DNA of 39,754 nt. Origin: Kayfunavirus BDX03P1. The position numbers and the translations under genes are program-made. Shown here piece after piece: positions 848 through 16,944 of this stretch; positions within the stretch are counted from its first letter, which is position 1; each line of letters opens with the position of its first letter. The notes beneath the pieces were generated by a model. That model worked only from the letters and a program-made list of their open reading frames with translations. It was not told the origin of the DNA and searched no databases. The stretch lies in the sequence record OZ035818.1; one strand, given 5' to 3'.

Positions 848-1230
848 TGCTAACAGACTTTGCGTATTCAGACGGTAAGTTGTTCAGGAAGGGACGTGAA
901 GTCGGCTCAATGGACAACCACGGGTATCTGAGGACTACGGTCAACTATCGTAAGTATCTCGTACACCGTCTAATCTACAAGCTGCACAACCCTGAGTTCG
1001 ACCTTGAATCAGACCTTGTGATTGACCACATCAACCGCAACCGGACAGACAACAGGATTGAGAACCTTCGGGCTGTGACCAAGGCTGAAAACAACAGGAA
1101 CAGGGACCTGCCAAGAGGCGTGTCTTATTGTAAACAGACCGGGAAGTGGAAGGCTATACAACCTCGCTGGCTCGGTCGATTTGAGACTGAACAGGAGGCC
1201 ATTGATGCAGTTAACGCCGCAAGAGCGTAA
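847..1230 (+). CDS. HNH homing endonuclease with AP2-like DNA-binding domain
   Basis: 127 aa; HNH core [29 protein letters not shown]; C-terminal AP2-like segment [32 protein letters not shown]; start ATG overlaps Rz stop. Confidence 0.8.
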
Positions 1231-2968
1231 TGACGCCGTGACAAAGAGGATGAAAGAGGACTTCGTGTTCTTCTTATTCGTCCTCTGGAAAGCACTTAGC
1301 CTACCAATACCAACCAGATGCCAGATAGATATGGCCCGTAAGCTATCGGCTGGGGACAACAGGCGCTTCATCTTACAGGCGTTCCGTGGTATCGGGAAGT
1401 CCTTCATTACGTGTGCCTTCGTTGTCTGGAAGCTATGGAACAACCCAGACTTGAAGTTCATGATTGTGTCGGCCTCAAAGGAACGAGCCGATGCTAACTC
1501 CATCTTCATCAAGCGAATCATCGACCTCATGCCTCAGCTTCAGGAACTCAAACCTAAGCAGGGACAGCGAGATGCGGTTATCAGCTTCGACGTTGGACCA
1601 GCCAAGCCAGACCACTCACCTTCGGTTAAGTCAGTTGGTATCACTGGTCAGTTGACTGGTAGTCGTGCTGACATCCTGATTGCCGACGACGTGGAGGTTC
1701 CGAACAACTCAGCGACTCAGGCTGCACGAGACCGTCTATCAGAGCTTGTGAAAGAGTTCGACGCTATCCTGAAGCCTGGAGGTACAATCATCTATCTGGG
1801 TACTCCTCAGAACGAGATGACCTTGTATCGTGAGCTGGAAGGCCGTGGATACACCACTACTATCTGGCCTGCTCGCTATCCACGTGATAGGAAGGACTGG
1901 CAGTCTTACGGCGACCGTCTGGCACCGATGCTTCAGGCAGAGCTGGAAGAGGACCCTGAGTCCTTCTACTGGCGTCCGACCGATGAAGTTCGCTTCGACG
2001 ATACTGACCTGAAGGAACGTGAGCTGTCCTATGGTAAAGCTGGCTTCGCTCTACAGTTCATGCTCAACCCGAACCTGAGTGATGCCGAGAAGTACCCTCT
2101 GAAGCTCCGTGACCTTATCGTAGCAGACTTGGACCCAGCGTCCAGCCCAATGGTCTACCAATGGTTGCCTAACCCTCACAACAAGCGTGAGGACGTTCCT
2201 AACGTTGGACTCATGGGCGACTCGTACCACACGTATCAGACTGTAGGTTCTGCCTTCAGTTCGTACACCCAGAAGATTCTGGTCATTGACCCTAGTGGTC
2301 GTGGTAAGGATGAAACTGGCTATGCGGTACTATACCAGCTCAACGGCTACATCTTCGCTATGGAAGTTGGCGGTATGCGTGGTGGTTATGAAGACTCTAC
2401 TCTGGAAGCTCTGGCTAAGATTGGTCGTAAGTGGAAGGTCAACGAATACGTCATTGAGGGTAACTTCGGTGATGGTATGTACCTTGAGTTATTTAAGCCT
2501 GTAGCGGCCCGTATCCATCCTGCGGCTGTAACTGAAGTGAAGAGTAAGGGTCAGAAAGAACTCCGCATCTGTGACGTTCTGGAGCCTATCATGGGGTCTC
2601 ACAGACTTATCGTCAACGCTGCTGCTATCGTCCAAGATTACCAGTCGGCCTCTGATAAGGATGGTGTTCGTAACCCTATCTACTCTCTCTTCTACCAGAT
2701 GACACGTATCTCTCGTGAACGTGGGGCCTTGGCACACGATGACCGACTTGATGCGCTGGCTATCGGTGTACAGTTCTTCGTTGAGTCTATGGCTAAGGAT
2801 GCCAACAAAGGCGAACGTGAAGTCACTGAGGAGTGGCTGGAGGAACAGATGGAGAACCCACGGAAAGGCTTCGAGTCCATCCACACTGAGTTCTGGGACA
2901 ATGGGGTCCGGGTAACCCACGATACGGACGACGAGCTGGGGCTAGGGTCATACGTTACGTTCCACTAG
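1205..2968 (+). CDS. terminase large subunit (T7 gp19-like)
   Basis: Long ORF 1181-2968; strong resemblance to T7 gp19 ([21 protein letters not shown] Walker A region, [20 protein letters not shown]); start 1205 chosen by alignment of N-terminus, alternative ATG at 1181. Confidence 0.9.
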
Positions 2969-3062
2969 CTGAATGAATAACTATGGGTGAAAGCTGCATG
3001 AATACGCAGTTAGTAACCTATAGTTACTACCAGTCTAACCTACTGTTTTACAAGGAGTTTGG

Positions 3063-3085
3063 ACTTAACTATCACTATAGGGAAG
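3063..3085 (+). promoter_or_regulatory. phage RNAP promoter (phiOR-like, downstream of terminase)
   Basis: cttaactatcactatagggaaga matches the 12-copy consensus TAAACTATCACTATAGGRA. Confidence 0.6.
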
Positions 3086-3264
3086 ACCCCCGGTTACTTA
3101 TAGTATTACTGTAGTGAATATACATATGCAGACTTTATGCAAGACCTTAGGAGGCAGACTCCGAGTTCTTACCTAAGGCTTGCACCGATGGAAGGAGGTG
3201 ATATTAATCATAATCCCTCCAATACAGATAGTCACCGACCATAGATACAGGAGGTATGTAGCAT

Positions 3265-3423
3265 ATGGCAAAGACCAAAGCTGTACTTAAAGCTCTGGCG
3301 ACCAATCGAGCTACATACAGGTTTCTTGCTGCTGTTCTACTTGCTGCTGGCGTTACTGCTGGAAGTCAGTGGGTCGGGTGGGTCGAGACTCTCGTATGTT
3401 CTCTGGTGTCTGAGTGTCATTAA
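3265..3423 (+). CDS. small hydrophobic protein at gp19.5 position
   Basis: 52-codon ORF (below the ORF-track cutoff) with AGGAGG RBS 8 nt upstream; MAKTKAVLKALATNRATYRFLAAVLLAAGVTAG...; position equivalent to T7 gene 19.5. Confidence 0.4.
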   Translation: MAKTKAVLKALATNRATYRFLAAVLLAAGVTAGSQWVGWVETLVCSLVSECH

Positions 3424-3559
3424 CGCCGTAATGGTAACAATAAACGAAAGTAAGACCTAAGGTCAGTTCATAGCTGACGCTACTCTACTGACCTTAGCTA
3501 CTGTAGTCAAGGACTTTAGGTAACACCTTAAGAGAAGCTCACTTAGGGTCATCCTACTT

Positions 3560-3625
3560 ATTGGTCTATCCTAGTGTCGCCTGACCTACGGTCCTTGACC
3601 TACAGTGGCTGTGGCCTACAGTAGT
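3560..3625. repeat. short direct-repeat array (ACCTACRGT-type) flanking the terminal repeat
   Basis: gacctacggt / gacctacagt / gcctacagt tandem imperfect copies; analogous to T7 short-repeat arrays next to the terminal redundancy. Confidence 0.5.
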
Positions 3626-3660
3626 GACGATGAGTTTTGGACCAAAAGTTTGAGACCACA

Positions 3661-3850
3661 TCTCACAGTTCAAGAACCTCAAGTCTCCCCATAGGCCATC
3701 TTTCAGTCCAGACCAAAGGCCCTACCCCAGTCTATCATAAGGTTGGACCGATGGTCAAGACGTTAGGTCAACGATAGGTCTAGGCTATGGCTTAGGGAAG
3801 GACGATAGGTAGGGACTATGGGTCTTCTCTGAGTCTCTATCTGTATCAGA
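3661..3850. repeat. probable terminal redundancy (direct terminal repeat) / physical genome end, collapsed to one copy
   Basis: Begins tctcacagt as the T7 left end does (TCTCACAGTGTACGGACC); ends near ctctatctgtatcagacc resembling the T7 TR end; flanked by short-repeat arrays; right boundary approximate. Confidence 0.45.
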
Positions 3851-3950
3851 CCATAAGTAACAACCATCAGCCTACGCCTACAGTCTCACTAACCATAAGT
3901 CACAACCATAAGACACCAACGCCTACAGTCAGAGACCAACGGTTAATAGA
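3850..3950. repeat. short direct-repeat array (CCATAAGT and CGCCTACAGTC units)
   Basis: aaccataagt x3 and cgcctacagtc x2 in about 100 bp; analogous to T7 CCTAAAG repeats on the left-end side of the TR. Confidence 0.5.
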
Positions 3951-4054
3951 CACAATGCTATAGACTTAAGGTCTAAGACATGTTAGTCAAAGACTATATC
4001 CTCTTACACCATGGGGCCGACGATGGCTCAATCAATATTATTTCAAATAACCTA

Positions 4055-4090
4055 TTGACTATAGGTCTAGACTATGGCTTAATAGCTTCC
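4055..4090 (+). promoter_or_regulatory. sigma70 early promoter (A1-like)
   Basis: TTGACT - 17 bp - CTTAAT; surrounding sequence resembles the T7 A1 region (ttgact...ccggata...gtagacagcctgataagtc). Confidence 0.45.
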
Positions 4091-4194
4091 GTCAACACGA
4101 CACGGCAACAACCGGATAGTGAAGACGCCGGGTCATCCCGGTCAAGTAGACAGCCTGATAAGTCATACGAACAACAGGCAGATGACAAAAGCAG

Positions 4195-4232
4195 TTGACA
4201 AGAAGTACAAACTTAAAGTAGTATGTACCACG
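4195..4232 (+). promoter_or_regulatory. sigma70 early promoter (A2/A3-like)
   Basis: TTGACA - 18 bp - TAGTAT followed by GTACCAC as in T7 A3. Confidence 0.5.
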
Positions 4233-4342
4233 TAGCAAGATGGCGTAGGGATAGGAGCCGAGAAACCTGCCCGAGACCAGCCAAGGATAAGGCACTAGCC
4301 GTGAGTCGAATTCGGTCACTCACCGCATAAAAGAATAACAGG

Positions 4343-4380
4343 TTGACAGCCTCCTTTAAAAGCTGTAAGCTGTACCACAT
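4343..4380 (+). promoter_or_regulatory. sigma70 early promoter (A3-like)
   Basis: TTGACA - 17 bp - TAAGCT followed by GTACCAC. Confidence 0.5.
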
Positions 4381-4549
4381 CGAAACGAAGGTGAAGCCTA
4401 ACACTGAAACAGGCTAGCACGGCGACGACAGCCAACGCGAATGCTCTTTAACAATTTGGATAAACTCTTAATGTGCGCCGATAGCGACTAACTACAGGGT
4501 CTTTGAGTCTACAGCTGAAGGCCCTGACTGATAGTCACTAACTTAAAGG

Positions 4550-4804
4550 ATGGACACTATGAAACACTTAAGCACAATCACTAATCACAATGAAGTATTC
4601 GTGAACACTAAAGGTTATGCGTGGATTCAGCTTAAAGAGATGACAGGAGCGCGTCACCGTGTGGTAGTGCGCAAGGTCTCAAGCAAGCCGTTCAGCAACT
4701 ACAGTGTAGACACTGTGCGTATAGACAACGAGACCTACCTGATAGACTCACAGATAACCGTGAGTCCTACAGCGAGCGCCTCAGCTCCTTATTTCGCTAA
4801 CTGA
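4550..4804 (+). CDS. hypothetical early protein, first gene of the early operon (no T7 counterpart recognised)
   Basis: 84-aa ORF with GGA-rich RBS (aaggatgg); directly downstream of host-type promoters and upstream of ocr; flanked by similar elements (taactacagg...ctgatagtcactaac) at 4500-4545 and 4810-4860. Confidence 0.6.
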   Translation: MDTMKHLSTITNHNEVFVNTKGYAWIQLKEMTGARHRVVVRKVSSKPFSNYSVDTVRIDNETYLIDSQITVSPTASASAPYFAN

Positions 4805-4889
4805 GAGTGATTAACTACAGGTCGTTAGACTGATAGCGGCCTGAATGATAGTCACTAACACACACGATTAACTTTGAGAGGATATAACT

Positions 4890-5237
4890 ATGGAACGTAA
4901 CGCTAACGCATACTATGAGCTGATGGCTGCAACTGTTGAAGCCTTTAACGAGCGCATTCAGTACGACGAAATAGCTGAAGGCGATGACTACCACGATGCA
5001 CTGCATGAAGTTGTAGACGGTCAGGTCCCGCACTATTACCACGAGATCTTCACGGTGATGGCTGCTGATGGTATTTACCATGAGTTCGAAGACTCTGGGC
5101 TGATGCCTGAGACCAAGGATGTGACGCGTATACTGCAAGCTCGTATCTATGAGGCGCTTTATAACGACGTATCTAATAGCCGTGATGTGGTATGGTTTGA
5201 GGCTGAAGAGAGTGACGACGAGGAGGACTGCGAGTGA
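4890..5237 (+). CDS. ocr: Ocr-like DNA-mimic anti-restriction protein (T7 gp0.3-like)
   Basis: 115 aa, highly acidic; segments [41 protein letters not shown] and acidic C-tail match T7 Ocr closely. Confidence 0.9.
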
Positions 5238-5392
5238 TGGTAACTTATGGTCTCTGCCAGCACCACGTCACCAACGCCCGGATTATGGTCAAGACCGGGC
5301 AGTTAAACCACGATGCGACTATGCGTCACCTGAAAGCGGTCTATGAGGGCCGCAAGCGTATACACGACAGTTTGCACGCTGAGGACAAGTAA
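5237..5392 (+). CDS. small early protein (gp0.4 position; function not assigned)
   Basis: 51-codon ORF starting at ATG overlapping ocr stop (TGATG); same length as T7 gp0.4 but I cannot confirm sequence similarity. Confidence 0.35.
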   Translation: MVTYGLCQHHVTNARIMVKTGQLNHDATMRHLKAVYEGRKRIHDSLHAEDK

Positions 5393-5393
5393 C

Positions 5394-5519
5394 ATGTACC
5401 AGATAACTTATAGCAGTGAACAGGCGTTCTACGATGGGTGCTACGAGATGATGAAGCGCGGGGCTTGCTACGTGGCTAATCACCATAGCCTGACCATAAC
5501 GCTGACAGGCGGTTACTGA
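5394..5519 (+). CDS. small early ORF (41 aa), hypothetical
   Basis: ATG 2 nt after the previous stop; Cys-containing MYQITYSSEQAFYDGCYEMMKRGACYVANHH...; short, weak support. Confidence 0.25.
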   Translation: MYQITYSSEQAFYDGCYEMMKRGACYVANHHSLTITLTGGY

Positions 5520-5589
5520 GTGATAAACGAGAGGTAATCGACTGATAGGTGACCTCAAAGATTACCACTTGCATTAATAGGAGTTAACT

Positions 5590-5679
5590 ATGAGTGTGGG
5601 ATATTGGGCATGCCTAGCGCCAGTTATCTGGATGATAGGTTATGGGATATACGACTGTATTAAACGGGGATCACTATGA
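5590..5679 (+). CDS. small hydrophobic peptide (29 aa), hypothetical
   Basis: RBS taggag upstream; MSVGYWACLAPVIWMIGYGIY...; stop overlaps ATG of next ORF. Confidence 0.25.
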   Translation: MSVGYWACLAPVIWMIGYGIYDCIKRGSL

Positions 5680-5876
5680 GTCTTGCACTATTGATAGCCA
5701 TAGGCTATGCACTTATCGCCTACGTGCTGGTGAGAGACATTAACAAGGCGCGTAAAGTCTACAAATTCAACTATGTACATCTGGGCCGCTGGACTGTACG
5801 TCAACCTAACGGACGATTCATGCGCAACTTAGCGAACGTCTGGGATATAGCAACACTTGGGAGCAAACTACAATGA
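5676..5876 (+). CDS. small membrane protein, hypothetical early protein
   Basis: 66 aa; N-terminal TM segment LALLIAIGYALIAYVLV; translationally coupled to neighbours. Confidence 0.45.
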   Translation: MSLALLIAIGYALIAYVLVRDINKARKVYKFNYVHLGRWTVRQPNGRFMRNLANVWDIATLGSKLQ

Positions 5877-6205
5877 ACAAGTCATACGGGATTAATCTGG
5901 TACACTCTATGGACGCAGACATGCAAATGTTAAGCCTACTGGCTACCGGGTATCGTCACGGAACGTCAAGTCACTCCGCACGTCAACAGCAGGAGAGGGA
6001 CCGGGTACTACAAGCAAGACTCCGGGCTGAGGGCCATAAGTCCGAACTGATGTGTCTGGCGTATGGTGGACGACCAATCACTGACGATGGTAAACTTCTG
6101 GTCTCAGGCTGGAAGGCGATAGACCAACGGTCATCCATCAAGCACACGACTCATGGTGACTTCAGTCATCTTCACGCTAACCCACTGATATGCAAGCGAT
6201 TCTGA
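5873..6205 (+). CDS. hypothetical early protein at the gp0.7 position (no kinase motifs seen)
   Basis: 110-aa ORF, ATGA overlap with upstream ORF; immediately precedes RNAP gene; no Gly-rich loop, HRD or DFG kinase signatures. Confidence 0.5.
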   Translation: MNKSYGINLVHSMDADMQMLSLLATGYRHGTSSHSARQQQERDRVLQARLRAEGHKSELMCLAYGGRPITDDGKLLVSGWKAIDQRSSIKHTTHGDFSHLHANPLICKRF

Positions 6206-6227
6206 CTTAACTATCACTATAGGACTC
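6205..6227 (+). promoter_or_regulatory. phage RNAP promoter immediately upstream of the RNAP gene
   Basis: cttaactatcactataggactc, consensus match; followed by conserved leader gactcaaggtc. Confidence 0.55.
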
Positions 6228-6297
6228 AAGGTCTAAGACTCCAAGTGAAAAGACCAAAGAGACTTTAAGTGAAAGACTAATAACAAGGACTTTAAGT

Positions 6298-8979
6298 ATG
6301 AGCGTCATCTCTATTGACAAACACGACTTCTCTGATGTGTCAAACGCCATTGAGCCGTTTAACCTGCTGGCCGACCACTACGGGCAAGACCTTGCAGTCA
6401 AACAGCTTCAGCTTGAGCATGAGGCATACACTGAAGGCGAGCGACGTTTCATCAAAAACCTTGAGCGCCAGACTGAGCGAGGGGAACTGGCAGACAATCA
6501 GGTCGCCAAGCCTCTGATGCAGACTCTGGTCCCTAAGATTGCGCAAGCCGTCAGGGAGTGGCATGAAGGTCCAGACGGGAAGCTGTCAACCTCTCGTCCT
6601 AGCGTAGCGTTCACCATGTTGAGCACTGAAGAGAAGGCCGTCAAGGCCCGCTCGCTGCGCATCTCTTGCGAGTCTGCTGCGGTCATCATACTGAAGGTCA
6701 TACTCTCCAAGCTGGTCAAGCCTGAAGGGATACCGATTACACCGATGGCCTCCGCGATAGGTCGCACACTTGAGGACGAAATCCGCTTCGGTCGCATCCG
6801 TGACAAGGAGAAGGAGCACTTCAAGAAGGCGATAGCTGAGAATCTGAACAAGCGAGCTGGGGCATCCTACAAGAAAGCCTATATGCAAGCTGTCGAGACC
6901 TCCATGCTGGAGCAAGGCCAACTGGAAGATGCGTGGGGGACTTGGAGTCCTACAGAGGCTGTCCACGTTGGCATCAAGATGCTTGAGATTGTCATCCAGT
7001 CAACACAACTGGTCGAGCTTAAGCGGTACGGTGCTGGCAATGCAGCGGCTGACGTCGAGATGGTCCACCTGTCAGACTTCTGGGTCAAGAAGATGGCACA
7101 ACGAGGATTCAGCCTTGCGGGTATCGCTCCAGTCTACCAGCCTTGCGTCGTTCCACCTAAGCCGTGGACTGGTGTCGTAGGAGGTGGGTACTGGGCCAAA
7201 GGACGCAGACCACTACCACTGATTCGCTTAGGGTCTAAGTCTGCGGTGGCACGTTATGAAGACGTGTACATGCCTGAAGTCTATGACGCTGTGAATATCA
7301 TCCAGAATACACCTTGGAAAGTTAACAAAAAGGTACTGGAAGTGGTGAACATGGTCGAGAAGCTAAACAACACGCCTATTGATGACATCCCTCAGATGGA
7401 GCCACTGAAGCCTGAAGACTATGCGGGTGAGACTGAAGAGGAACTCAAGGCATGGAAGAAGGCTGCTGCTGGTATCTACCGCCGAGAGAAGGCCCGGCAG
7501 TCACGTAGATTGTCACTGAGCTTTATCGTTAACCAAGCGAACAAGTTCTCTCAGTTCAAGGCCATATGGTTTCCGTACAATATGGACTGGCGCGGTCGTG
7601 TCTACGCTGTTCCGATGTTCAACCCTCAGGGTAACGACATGCAAAAGGGTCTCCTGACTCTGGCAGTCGGTAAGCCTATTGGTGCTGATGGTTTCAAATG
7701 GCTGAAGGTCCACGGTGCAAACTGTGCGGGTATTGATAAAGTAACCTTCGAGGAGCGCATCAAGTGGGTGGAAGATAACCACGACAACATCATGGCTACC
7801 GCTAAGGCACCGATGGACAGCATTGAGTGGTGGGGAAAGTTAGACTCTCCGTTCTGCTTCCTAGCGTTCTGCTTCGAGTATGCTGGCGTAATGCATCACG
7901 GATTGTCTTACTCCTGCTCGCTGCCGATAGCATTCGATGGGTCCTGCTCTGGGATTCAGCACTTTAGCGCAATGCTTCGTGATCACATCGGTGGACATGC
8001 AGTAAACCTGACGCCTTCCGGTAAGGTCCAAGACATCTACCGCATCGTGTCGGACCGCATTGAGGAGGAGCTTAAAGTCCTGCTGGTTAATGGCACGGAC
8101 AACGAGATGGTAACTCACGAGGACAAGAAAACTGGTGAGATTACCGAACGTCTCAAGCTGGGGACACGAGAGCTGGCCCGGCAGTGGCTGACTTACGGTA
8201 TGTCACGCAAGGTCACTAAGCGTTCGGTCATGACTCTGGCCTACGGGTCGAAAGAGTATGGCTTCGCAGACCAAGTTTACGAGGACATCGTTATGCCAGC
8301 GATTGACTCAGGGTCTGGCGCTATGTTCACCGAACCAAGCCAAGCGTCCCGCTTCATGGCTAAGATGATCTGGGAAGCTGTGAGCGTGACCGTAGTTGCT
8401 GCTGTTGACGCGATGAAGTGGCTTCAAGGTGCTGCCAAGCTGCTGGCTGCTGAAGTGAAAGACAAGAAGACTGGAGAAATCCTGAAGCCTTGCCTTCCGG
8501 TACACTGGGTCACACCTGATGGTTTCCCGGTCTGGCAGGAATACCGCAAGAAGGATACCACTCGTCTGAATCTGATGTTCTTAGGGTCATTCAACCTTCA
8601 ACCTACGGTCAACAAAGGTACGAAGAAAGAGCTGGACAAGCACAAGCAGGAGTCAGGCATTAGCCCGAACTTCGTCCACTCACAAGATGGTAGCCACCTA
8701 CGCAAGACTGTAGTCCACACTCACCGTAAGTATGGCGTGATGTCGTTCGCAGTGATTCACGATAGCTTCGGGACCATCCCGGCTGACGCTGAGTATCTGT
8801 TCCGGGGTGTCCGTGAGACGATGGTCGAGACCTACCGCGACAACGATGTGCTGCTTGACTTCTACGAGCAGTTTGAATACCAACTTCATGAGAGCCAGCG
8901 CGACAAGTTGCCTGAGCTTCCGAAGAAAGGTAAACTGAATATCGAGGACATCTTGTCTTCAGACTTTGCATTCGCTTAA
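6298..8979 (+). CDS. DNA-directed RNA polymerase, single-subunit (T7 gp1-like)
   Basis: 893 aa; near-colinear with T7 RNAP (e.g. WFPYNMDWRGRVYAV, FNPQGNDM, FDGSCSGIQHFSAMLRD, HDSFGT, C-terminal FAFA). Confidence 0.97.
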   Translation: MSVISIDKHDFSDVSNAIEPFNLLADHYGQDLAVKQLQLEHEAYTEGERRFIKNLERQTERGELADNQVAKPLMQTLVPKIAQAVREWHEGPDGKLSTSRPSVAFTMLSTEEKAVKARSLRISCESAAVIILKVILSKLVKPEGIPITPMASAIGRTLEDEIRFGRIRDKEKEHFKKAIAENLNKRAGASYKKAYMQAVETSMLEQGQLEDAWGTWSPTEAVHVGIKMLEIVIQSTQLVELKRYGAGNAAADVEMVHLSDFWVKKMAQRGFSLAGIAPVYQPCVVPPKPWTGVVGGGYWAKGRRPLPLIRLGSKSAVARYEDVYMPEVYDAVNIIQNTPWKVNKKVLEVVNMVEKLNNTPIDDIPQMEPLKPEDYAGETEEELKAWKKAAAGIYRREKARQSRRLSLSFIVNQANKFSQFKAIWFPYNMDWRGRVYAVPMFNPQGNDMQKGLLTLAVGKPIGADGFKWLKVHGANCAGIDKVTFEERIKWVEDNHDNIMATAKAPMDSIEWWGKLDSPFCFLAFCFEYAGVMHHGLSYSCSLPIAFDGSCSGIQHFSAMLRDHIGGHAVNLTPSGKVQDIYRIVSDRIEEELKVLLVNGTDNEMVTHEDKKTGEITERLKLGTRELARQWLTYGMSRKVTKRSVMTLAYGSKEYGFADQVYEDIVMPAIDSGSGAMFTEPSQASRFMAKMIWEAVSVTVVAAVDAMKWLQGAAKLLAAEVKDKKTGEILKPCLPVHWVTPDGFPVWQEYRKKDTTRLNLMFLGSFNLQPTVNKGTKKELDKHKQESGISPNFVHSQDGSHLRKTVVHTHRKYGVMSFAVIHDSFGTIPADAEYLFRGVRETMVETYRDNDVLLDFYEQFEYQLHESQRDKLPELPKKGKLNIEDILSSDFAFA

Positions 8980-8993
8980 CAGGAGAGAGAGTT

Positions 8994-9209
8994 ATGAAAT
9001 TCGCACACAAGCAGACGGGCGTTAATGGTGGGACTCAAATCGTGACCGTAACGGAACACAACGGCAAGGGTCTGGTGAAGACCACTGTCATCCCAACTAA
9101 GATGTCCAAGCAGCTTAACATTCCGTTCAAGACTCTTGTATATCTGGTCGAGTCCAGCCACGAGAAGTACCTGAAGGACGTAGTGTCCAAGCTGGAGCAG
9201 ACCAAATGA
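8994..9209 (+). CDS. hypothetical protein
   Basis: 71-aa ORF with GGAGAG RBS immediately after RNAP; no recognisable motif. Confidence 0.45.
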   Translation: MKFAHKQTGVNGGTQIVTVTEHNGKGLVKTTVIPTKMSKQLNIPFKTLVYLVESSHEKYLKDVVSKLEQTK

Positions 9210-9284
9210 CAGACCTACAGTTACTGGCCTTGTGGCTGGGAGCACTCGCAATATTCACTTTAATCCAACGCAGAAGAGGTTAAC

Positions 9285-9307
9285 CCTAAACTATCACTAT
9301 AGGATTA
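9285..9307 (+). promoter_or_regulatory. phage RNAP promoter (phi1.1-like)
   Basis: ctaaactatcactataggatta; followed by the conserved hairpin element. Confidence 0.65.
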
Positions 9308-9350
9308 GACTCAAGGTCATGACTCAAAGTCGTGGCCTTCATGATTAACC
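9305..9350 (+). promoter_or_regulatory. conserved hairpin, probable RNase III site (R1.1 position)
   Basis: ttagactcaaggtcatgactcaaagtcgtggccttcatgattaacc; second copy of the element at 306-350. Confidence 0.45.
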
Positions 9351-9380
9351 CTAAATAAACACTACTGGAGATTTAACCGT

Positions 9381-9560
9381 ATGTATCAGAACACTATCAA
9401 CTTCGAGCGCATCCGTGAACGTCAGCAGACTGAAGGCTACATCCCGAAGGGCCGCAAGCTGAACAAGACTAAGCGTGGCGGTGGTGTCAAAGGCGCTTTC
9501 CGTAATGCTGAAGGTAAAGACTCTCTGGTCAACAAAGAGAAGTATTTCTTAGGAGCGTAA
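9381..9560 (+). CDS. gp1.1-like small basic protein
   Basis: 59-codon ORF; KGRKLNKTKR motif as in T7 gp1.1. Confidence 0.6.
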   Translation: MYQNTINFERIRERQQTEGYIPKGRKLNKTKRGGGVKGAFRNAEGKDSLVNKEKYFLGA

Positions 9561-16708: not shown

Positions 16709-16873
16709 GTGTTAAAGAAACTTAAAGCCCGCTACCACAGGTTCATGTACAAATGGTGGAGCGATGAAGCAACCTGCCTGTCCAACATTCTGGGAGACCA
16801 GCGGTTCAACTCTGAGGCATGGAAGAAAGCTAACCGGAAGTTCATGTATCACTTCTTGCGTACAGACTACTAA
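16709..16873 (+). CDS. small hypothetical protein (GTG start)
   Basis: 54 codons from GTG with GGAGGA RBS; weak. Confidence 0.3.
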   Translation: MLKKLKARYHRFMYKWWSDEATCLSNILGDQRFNSEAWKKANRKFMYHFLRTDY

Positions 16874-16891
16874 GCTATCACTGTAGGATAG
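16869..16891 (+). promoter_or_regulatory. phage RNAP promoter (variant CACTGTAGG)
   Basis: ctaagctatcactgtaggatag. Confidence 0.55.
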
Positions 16892-16931
16892 ACTCAAGGT
16901 CATTCACTTCGAGTGGCCTTTATGATTAGAC
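16888..16931 (+). promoter_or_regulatory. conserved hairpin, probable RNase III site (R4.7 position)
   Basis: atagactcaaggtcattcacttcgagtggcctttatgattagac; inner stem CACT/AGTG differs from other copies while outer arms are conserved. Confidence 0.45.
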
Positions 16932-16944
16932 TATAGGAGACATT

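Follow-up and report, generated by a model that had tools for sequence, protein, structure and literature searches.

A hairpin-bracketed accessory gene between the early promoters and ocr of a K1F-like Kayfunavirus

Both T7 and T3 have gene 0.3 (ocr) as the first gene after their A promoters, as an initial annotation of the DNA analysed here had stated for T7. In Kayfunavirus BDX03P1 (sequence record OZ035818.1; its whole stretch of 39,754 nucleotides is referred to here as the window) a further small reading frame lies between the A promoters and ocr, and that annotation proposed that it is an extra gene of a cassette inserted by duplication of an RNA-processing site. We ask what this gene is, how it may have come to head the early transcript, and what its product may do.

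A 1.4-kb query around the locus displayed 89–94% identity to Kayfunavirus genomes (K1F, Peacock, IMEP24, Vec13 and others), and the RNA polymerase gene (6298–8979) is 96.6% identical to its counterpart in EcoDS1; judged by these comparisons, the phage is a K1F-like Kayfunavirus. Relative to a K1F-like genome the window is circularly permuted, and its early region begins near 4000. The features of this region, all on the plus strand, are:

4049..4380 (+), three early host-RNA-polymerase promoters of the A1–A3 type, with -35 boxes TTGACT/TTGACA from 4055, 4195 and 4343
4442..4466 (+), conserved early leader TGCTCTTTAACAATTTGGATAAACT, a block shared with T7, T3, EcoDS1, SEA1f and Przondovirus K10PH82C1
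4482..4540 (+), hairpin Ra, an RNase III-type site and positional orthologue of T7/T3 R0.3 by fold and alignment
4543..4859 (+), one cassette unit of 317 nt (leader and Shine-Dalgarno sequence, gene 0.2, Rb), equal to the stretch missing in EcoDS1
4546..4550 (+), Shine-Dalgarno sequence AAGGA of gene 0.2, read from the sequence, 8 nt upstream of ATG 4559
4559..4804 (+), gene 0.2 (K1F gp0.2 family, phrog_10124), 81 aa plus stop, stop included in the coordinates
4806..4856 (+), hairpin Rb, a second RNase III-type site with the architecture of Ra duplicated and a different upper stem and loop
4890..5237 (+), ocr (gene 0.3), DNA-mimic anti-restriction protein (PF08684, E 8.5e-31), the neighbour outside the cassette
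5519..5568 (+), third RNase III-type hairpin, R0.5-like, conserved in relatives, which closes the ocr gene group

The host RNA polymerase promoters annotated in EcoDS1 (469–505, 609–647 and 764–800) correspond, using a 3580-nt offset taken from a shared hairpin, to ~4049–4085, ~4189–4227 and ~4344–4380 in the window. A promoter scan recovered TTGACA-18-TAGTAT at 4195–4224, and the other two A-type promoters were read off the sequence. A 72-aa open reading frame at 3980–4198 (+), equivalent to 'gp0.1' of K1F, begins upstream of promoter A1 and overlaps both A1 and A2. This frame is unlikely to be a gene, and the labels carried by its counterparts ('alpha trehalase' in TM1, 'alpha,alpha-trehalase' in FFK3/vB_EcoP_F) look like an annotation error. 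Downstream of the promoters, the leader block TGCTCTTTAACAAT.TGGATAA precedes R0.3 in T7, T3, EcoDS1 and Przondovirus, and precedes Ra in the window. Positions 4442–4454 of the leader, TGCTCTTTAACAA, match the E. coli rrn boxA antitermination consensus (TGCTCTTTAACAA). This boxA-like leader, found at ~814–826 in T7, ~781–793 in T3 and ~1846–1857 in L008, is kept across T7, T3, Kayfunavirus and Przondovirus, and may recruit host Nus factors to the early transcript.

The extra reading frame reported between the A promoters and ocr is present, 84 aa in its longest form (4550–4804, +), and the gene that follows it at 4890–5237 is ocr by its match to PF08684 (E 8.5e-31) as well as to phrog_2568 (E 2.5e-52), with a pI of 4.06. 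The first ATG, at 4550, has no Shine-Dalgarno sequence and overlaps the AAGGA at 4546–4550, the sole such sequence there. The ATG at 4559 is the start annotated in K1F and the one at which all N-termini of the family (M-x-x-LS) align. Since the Shine-Dalgarno spacing, the K1F annotation and the aligned N-termini all point to ATG 4559, this is the probable true start, giving a product of 81 aa.

The initial annotation recognised no similarity for this protein, a statement that has to be withdrawn: it is K1F gp0.2, with 95% identity to the protein in record AM084414 (CAJ29341.1) and 69 phage records at 90% identity or more. It also matches phrog_10124, a PHROG without described function, over its full length (E 1.6e-40, residues 1–81), and we find no substantive difference that would set it apart from the other members. 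K1F gp0.2 lies as in the window, between an R0.3-type hairpin and ocr; one K1F record, DQ111067, leaves the gene without annotation. In records OR594182 and OR594184 (SHAK7854 and SHAK9454) a feature labelled 'similar to N4-like RNA polymerase' spans the gene 0.2 region, which looks like automated mis-annotation. Comparison with the Klebsiella phage copy gives pN 0.17 against pS 0.73, at which synonymous sites are saturated, and the copies in N4-like phages have dN/dS of ~0.1 among themselves. These substitution patterns support a real coding gene under strong purifying selection, and we dropped the reading of the ORF as a spurious frame because dN/dS is far below 1.

The duplicated leader element on either side of the gene was also borne out, although its first coordinate had been placed about 10 nt too high. 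The copies of the repeat TAACTACAGG...CCTGAnTGATAGTCACTAAC lie at 4489–4542 and 4812–4859, with 3' arms alike at 19 of 20 positions and a start-to-start spacing of 317 nt. The exact 14-mer TGATAGTCACTAAC has two occurrences, and the pattern TAACTNNAGG-N(8–38)-CCTNNNTGAT is found twice in the real sequence compared to none in each of 100 shuffles. Minimum free energy folding gives a lower stem, an asymmetric internal loop and an upper stem for both Ra (-24 kcal/mol, z -3.3) and Rb (-23.3 kcal/mol, z -6.1), and both align to R0.3/R0.5 of T3 (annotated as stem_loops in NC_003298) and the equivalent T7 sequences. A consensus structure was built from 17 hairpins of the window, K1F, Peacock, Vec13, T147P5, Klebsiella Przondovirus, T7 and T3; 95% of its cells pair, compared to 25–45% when the 3' partner is slid by 1–3 columns, and in 11 of the 19 pairs both bases are altered. 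Covariation scores 0.548, compared to at most 0.10 with the partner slid, and none of 500 shuffles reached the observed value. At the level of sequence, Ra and Rb are shown to be homologous to the RNase III-type sites of T7 and T3, with covariation in support of a common structure, and the proposal that the repeat is an R0.3-like processing site agrees with fold, T7/T3 alignment and covariation alike. Cleavage by RNase III would be expected at both hairpins. Because the leader block that lies upstream of R0.3 precedes Ra, we regard Ra as the positional orthologue of R0.3 and Rb as the extra copy.

The likeness to R0.3 and R0.5 of T7 and T3 extends from the lower stem, asymmetric internal loop and upper stem to common blocks (AGYG..TAACT..AGG / CCT...TGAT..CAC), and to context: the sites are intercistronic in the early transcript made by host RNA polymerase, and the first of them follows the same leader. 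The window differs in having two hairpins before ocr rather than one, and in reading ACAGG/CCUG for CAAGG/CCUU. This lineage-specific compensatory change is shared by Ra and Rb and is missing from the window's other RNase III-type sites (5519–5568, 9309–9345, 16892–16926), which points to Ra and Rb being related by duplication or gene conversion rather than alike through mere functional constraint; part of the likeness could still reflect RNase III constraint instead of recombination. The motif for such sites also recovers three T7 positions (862, 1437 and 5857), presumably R0.3, R0.5 and R1.1. An Rfam scan of 3000–9500 at E <= 1 returned no family, Rfam having no model for T7 RNase III sites. 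A promoter and terminator scan of Ra and Rb found neither a sigma70 promoter nor a terminator T-run, and the absence of the T-run rules them out as intrinsic terminators. The 5519..5568 hairpin is kept in K1F, Peacock, Vec13, T147P5, EcoDS1 and TM1. Elsewhere in the window, two T7-consensus RNase III-type hairpins (ACTCAAGG...CCTTYATGAT) at 9284–9357 and 16868–16938 (+) each stand directly after sequence ending in CACTATAGGA / CACTGTAGGA, endings that look like a phage RNA polymerase promoter; the promoter and hairpin pairs resemble phi1.1/R1.1 of T7.

Was the gene inserted as a cassette? Alignment of the early region to T7, T3 and relatives, by which the insertion was to be confirmed, finds no counterpart of gene 0.2 in the early regions of T7 and T3 and a precise empty site in EcoDS1. 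A 20-nt direct repeat, CCTGAnTGATAGTCACTAAC, bounds the unit at 4523–4542 and 4840–4859. In EcoDS1 a near-identical Ra is joined, after ...GATAGTCACTAAC, straight to the ocr leader; as EcoDS1 has a single hairpin fused to this leader, the two genomes differ by exactly one 317-nt unit. This much of the proposed insertion by duplication stands, namely a hairpin-bounded unit that is precisely missing from a close relative and has no counterpart in T7 or T3. It is not an insertion private to this phage: a tblastn search with gene 0.2 found 117 phage records, and the event is old. Of these records 69 reach an identity of 90% or more, against 174 phage records for the RNA polymerase gene, so that gene 0.2 is present in ~40% of close relatives. 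EcoDS1 and SEA1f are among the Kayfunaviruses without it. Klebsiella phage SEA1f has a different, much longer hairpin before ocr (~790–895), in which the outer arms are unchanged (GTGATTAACTCAAG...TCTGATAGTCACTAAC); the upper stem and loop are therefore themselves replaceable.

Other Kayfunaviruses carry a second cassette, absent from the window, which consists of a 92-aa gene (p92; phrog_9817, no assigned function) bounded by hairpins of the same type. It occurs alone or before or after gene 0.2, always between such hairpins, at 1095–1373 in Peacock, 930–1208 in Vec13 and 776–1057 in TM1. Its protein is basic and has relatives at 50–60% identity in T3-like phages of Yersinia, Serratia, Citrobacter and Klebsiella. 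The natural orders (HP, hairpin) are:

HP-ocr: EcoDS1
HP-0.2-HP-ocr: the window, K1F
HP-p92-HP-ocr: TM1
HP-0.2-HP-p92-HP-ocr: Peacock, T147P5, LS2, ECG4, LS3, SHAK7854, PM129 group
HP-p92-HP-0.2-HP-ocr: Vec13

Cassettes have thus been gained or lost and permuted between hairpins in Kayfunavirus. The bases flanking a hairpin on its 5' side always accompany the gene upstream, and those on its 3' side the gene downstream, which places the crossovers within the hairpin, and we infer that recombination via the hairpins is the cause of the shuffling. RNase III-type hairpins appear to be joints at which early genes are added, lost and reordered. We consider these natural architectures, with RNase III-type hairpins as cassette boundaries, the most interesting result of the analysis; they are a variant of a known principle, which we did not find described for T7-like phages in the literature searched. 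Nor did that literature yield a discussion of RNase III sites in Kayfunavirus.

The known principle is that of the promoter-early stem-loop (PeSL) elements, mobile regulatory cassettes of T4-type phages (Arbiol et al. 2010, PMC2839356; Comeau et al. 2014, PMC4122927). These repeats lie on either side of small, non-essential ORFs in a hyperplastic early region, and where close relatives differ by indels or reshuffling, the junctions fall in the repeats (PMC2839356). In the window, too, the repeat flanks small accessory ORFs and the indel and permutation junctions lie within it, but here it is an RNA-processing hairpin with neither the sigma70 promoter nor the terminator stem-loop. The combination of promoter and stem-loop is found only in the repeats flanking the gene 0.2 homologue of Phapecoctavirus.

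Beyond Kayfunavirus, the Klebsiella Przondovirus homologue (74–77% identity) is the first early gene, has the same leader upstream and is bracketed by two RNase III-type hairpins; given this shared first-gene position and the saturation of synonymous sites, the arrangement is old. Ermolevavirus PGT2 has a homologue in its early region at 62% identity. In the N4-like Gamaleyavirus, homologues of 35–50% identity lie among the small genes of the left end, in EC1-UPM between genes annotated as RNAP1 subunits, and no flanking repeats of this kind accompany them as far as examined. The homologue in Phapecoctavirus, with genomes of 150 kb, displays 77% identity and is bracketed by a repeated 75-nt element comprising a sigma70 promoter and a GC stem-loop, present in 7 copies in 5 kb. 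In Escherichia phage phiWec179 (Phapecoctavirus, 900–6243) the seven copies, ~52–75 nt long, lie between consecutive small genes including the gp0.2 homologue, and consist of a TTGACA-17-TAAGAT promoter and a GGGCGGC...GCCGC stem-loop, a PeSL-like array in an rV5-like phage. The family is small: it makes up 68 of the clusters formed at 90% identity from 5.8 billion proteins. An exhaustive HMMER search of 1.84 billion representatives (50%) gave 17 hits, nine of them small phage-type proteins, including the cluster representative of the query itself, and the remaining eight long, multi-stretch and probably spurious. A scan of IMG/VR gave only 10 loci and nothing new, and no homologues were found on 72,556 plasmids or in representative genomes of 185,579 prokaryotic species.

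The protein is small (9.1 kDa) and basic, with a pI of 9.45 in a family range of 9.3–9.7. An AlphaFold2 model from a 35-sequence alignment predicts an all-beta structure (pLDDT 86, pTM 0.72). A few surface residues (K18, R38, K39, R54, Y20, Y60 and D63) are conserved in the family, and the protein has no enzyme-like features. Model confidence is low over the last ~12 residues, yet their sequence (APYFAN) is conserved, and this C-terminal tail may be a docking peptide. The tail (residues 69–81, window 4763–4801, SPTASASAPYFAN) has pLDDT 38–60; the motif APYF(A/S)N is conserved in the T7-like phages, Phapecoctavirus and one N4-like subgroup, while another N4-like subgroup has TSLEYTY. Family searches gave no match in Pfam, NCBIfam or PADLOC, and none among PDB sequences. 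A fold comparison, which the initial annotation had suggested as a check, matched no PDB fold and no BFVD protein with a named function, and the predicted fold would be an orphan, matching no solved structure or known family. Gp0.2 adjoins ocr on the same transcript, and the two are alike in their early timing and small size. It is unlike ocr in its pI (9.45 vs 4.06), its all-beta model and the lack of a Pfam ocr match, and we rejected the idea of a second ocr-like DNA mimic on the absence of a PF08684 match, the basic pI and an all-beta model set against the acidic, helical ocr.

Taken together, we think it likely that the locus, part of the accessory region of Kayfunavirus, is an early cassette with a single gene, bracketed by hairpins and encoding a selected, basic, all-beta protein that would neutralise a host factor. 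Host RNA polymerase would read from the A promoters across the conserved leader, giving a transcript that carries Ra and Rb around gene 0.2. If host RNase III acts on it as on the transcripts of T7 and T3, the enzyme would cut within the internal loops of Ra and Rb; gene 0.2 would then be freed as a monocistronic mRNA of ~317 nt, protected by a hairpin at its 3' end, and ocr would have an mRNA of its own. The near-identical hairpin arms would supply homology for recombination that adds, deletes and reorders cassettes, as suggested by the empty site and the permuted orders in relatives, and gp0.2 would be made in the first minutes of infection to bind and neutralise a host protein. The evidence for such a role is circumstantial: gene 0.2 is the first gene on the transcript of host RNA polymerase, lies beside ocr, is optional among near-identical phages, and encodes a small, non-enzyme-like protein with a tail conserved in sequence but of low confidence in the model. 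Circumstantial evidence likewise suggests that unrelated virulent phages have acquired the gene as an early cassette of its own. Such features would suit a product that acts by binding a host factor and neutralising it. From its position, a role in anti-defence or host takeover is plausible; anti-defence is our leading guess, held tentatively at a little short of an even chance, and general host takeover is the next, which we regard as rather unlikely.

The history of the cassette can be read differently. Gene 0.2 may be ancestral to the branch comprising Kayfunavirus and Przondovirus, with EcoDS1 and SEA1f having lost it by deletion between hairpins that would be simply the usual RNase III sites between the cistrons of an early operon, a reading to which we give a modest though real chance. 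The Przondovirus gene also comes first after the conserved leader and an R0.3-type hairpin, synonymous sites are saturated between the Przondovirus and Kayfunavirus copies, so that the arrangement must be old, and direct repeats allow recombination to delete a segment as easily as to insert one. Yet T7 and T3 lack a counterpart, the compensatory change that Ra and Rb share to the exclusion of the genome's other RNase III-type sites points to duplication or gene conversion, the p92 cassette lies on either side of gene 0.2, so cassettes do move, and the gene recurs in unrelated phage groups. That the ORF is non-functional and the segment acts at the RNA level only, for example as a spacer or as an extra 3'-hairpin stabiliser of early mRNAs, seems to us scarcely credible: the lack of an assigned family or fold and the unannotated gene in DQ111067 would suit it, but it is at odds with the strong purifying selection at saturated synonymous change, a Shine-Dalgarno sequence at the right distance from ATG 4559, a confidently predicted fold, and the retention of the protein at 35–50% identity in N4-like phages where the RNA context is missing.

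With regard to the target, T7 gp0.4, gp0.6, gp2 and gp5.7 bind housekeeping host proteins to optimise infection, and gp0.2 could likewise be a takeover factor acting on such a protein (in transcription, cell division, the cytoskeleton or proteolysis) rather than on a defence system. The class I position and the small, basic, non-enzymatic product with few conserved surface residues fit inhibitors of this kind as well as they fit anti-defence, and the presence of gp0.2 in Enterobacteriaceae phages of very different lifestyles would allow for a conserved host target. The patchy presence (~40%) among near-identical phages and the location in the ocr accessory hotspot are more typical of strain-specific counter-defence, and we consider the takeover alternative unlikely on balance. 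As for anti-defence itself, the searches of Pfam, NCBIfam, PADLOC, PDB sequences and folds and named BFVD proteins related gp0.2 to no known anti-defence family. A screen of 200 phage accessory genes by Silas et al. (bioRxiv 10.1101/2023.04.06.535777) is built on the same concept of variable small genes clustered with known counter-defence genes, and includes orf24 (AUE22229.1) from an accessory region containing ocr (10.1101/2023.04.06.535777). The orf24 sequence is unrelated to gp0.2, and the list of 200 genes (10.1101/2023.04.06.535777) contains no member of the gp0.2 family. In the literature searched, no paper named K1F gp0.2 or contained its peptide strings. In its boldest form, which is possible but which we would not expect, our preferred reading would make gp0.2 the founder of a new phage protein family, for counter-defence (or host inhibition), that has an orphan beta fold and a target common to Enterobacteriaceae. 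Its gene would have spread as a single-gene early cassette among T7-like, N4-like and rV5-like phages, with RNase III hairpins doubling as recombination linkers in the T7-like ones.

The cassette reading is essentially right, but what it describes is K1F 0.2, an accessory gene already annotated and genus-wide, and not a novelty of one phage. Near ocr, the early region of K1F-like phages forms a small array of combinations, with no cassette, either one alone, or both in either order, and the near-isogenic natural variants lend themselves directly to finding the role of each of the two cassette genes. Modifiers of host range matter here because phages of the K1F type are employed against encapsulated pathogenic E. 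coli. Four unrelated groups of virulent phages have gene 0.2 in their early regions, and none of the bacterial genomes or plasmids searched contains it, which makes it a reasonable candidate, at present only a candidate, for anti-defence and takeover screens. More broadly, the data suggest that RNA-processing sites are also joints of genome plasticity in T7-like phages, which would extend the PeSL idea from the T4-type phages; if this is true, RNase III hairpins are the RNA-processing-site counterpart of the PeSLs of T4.
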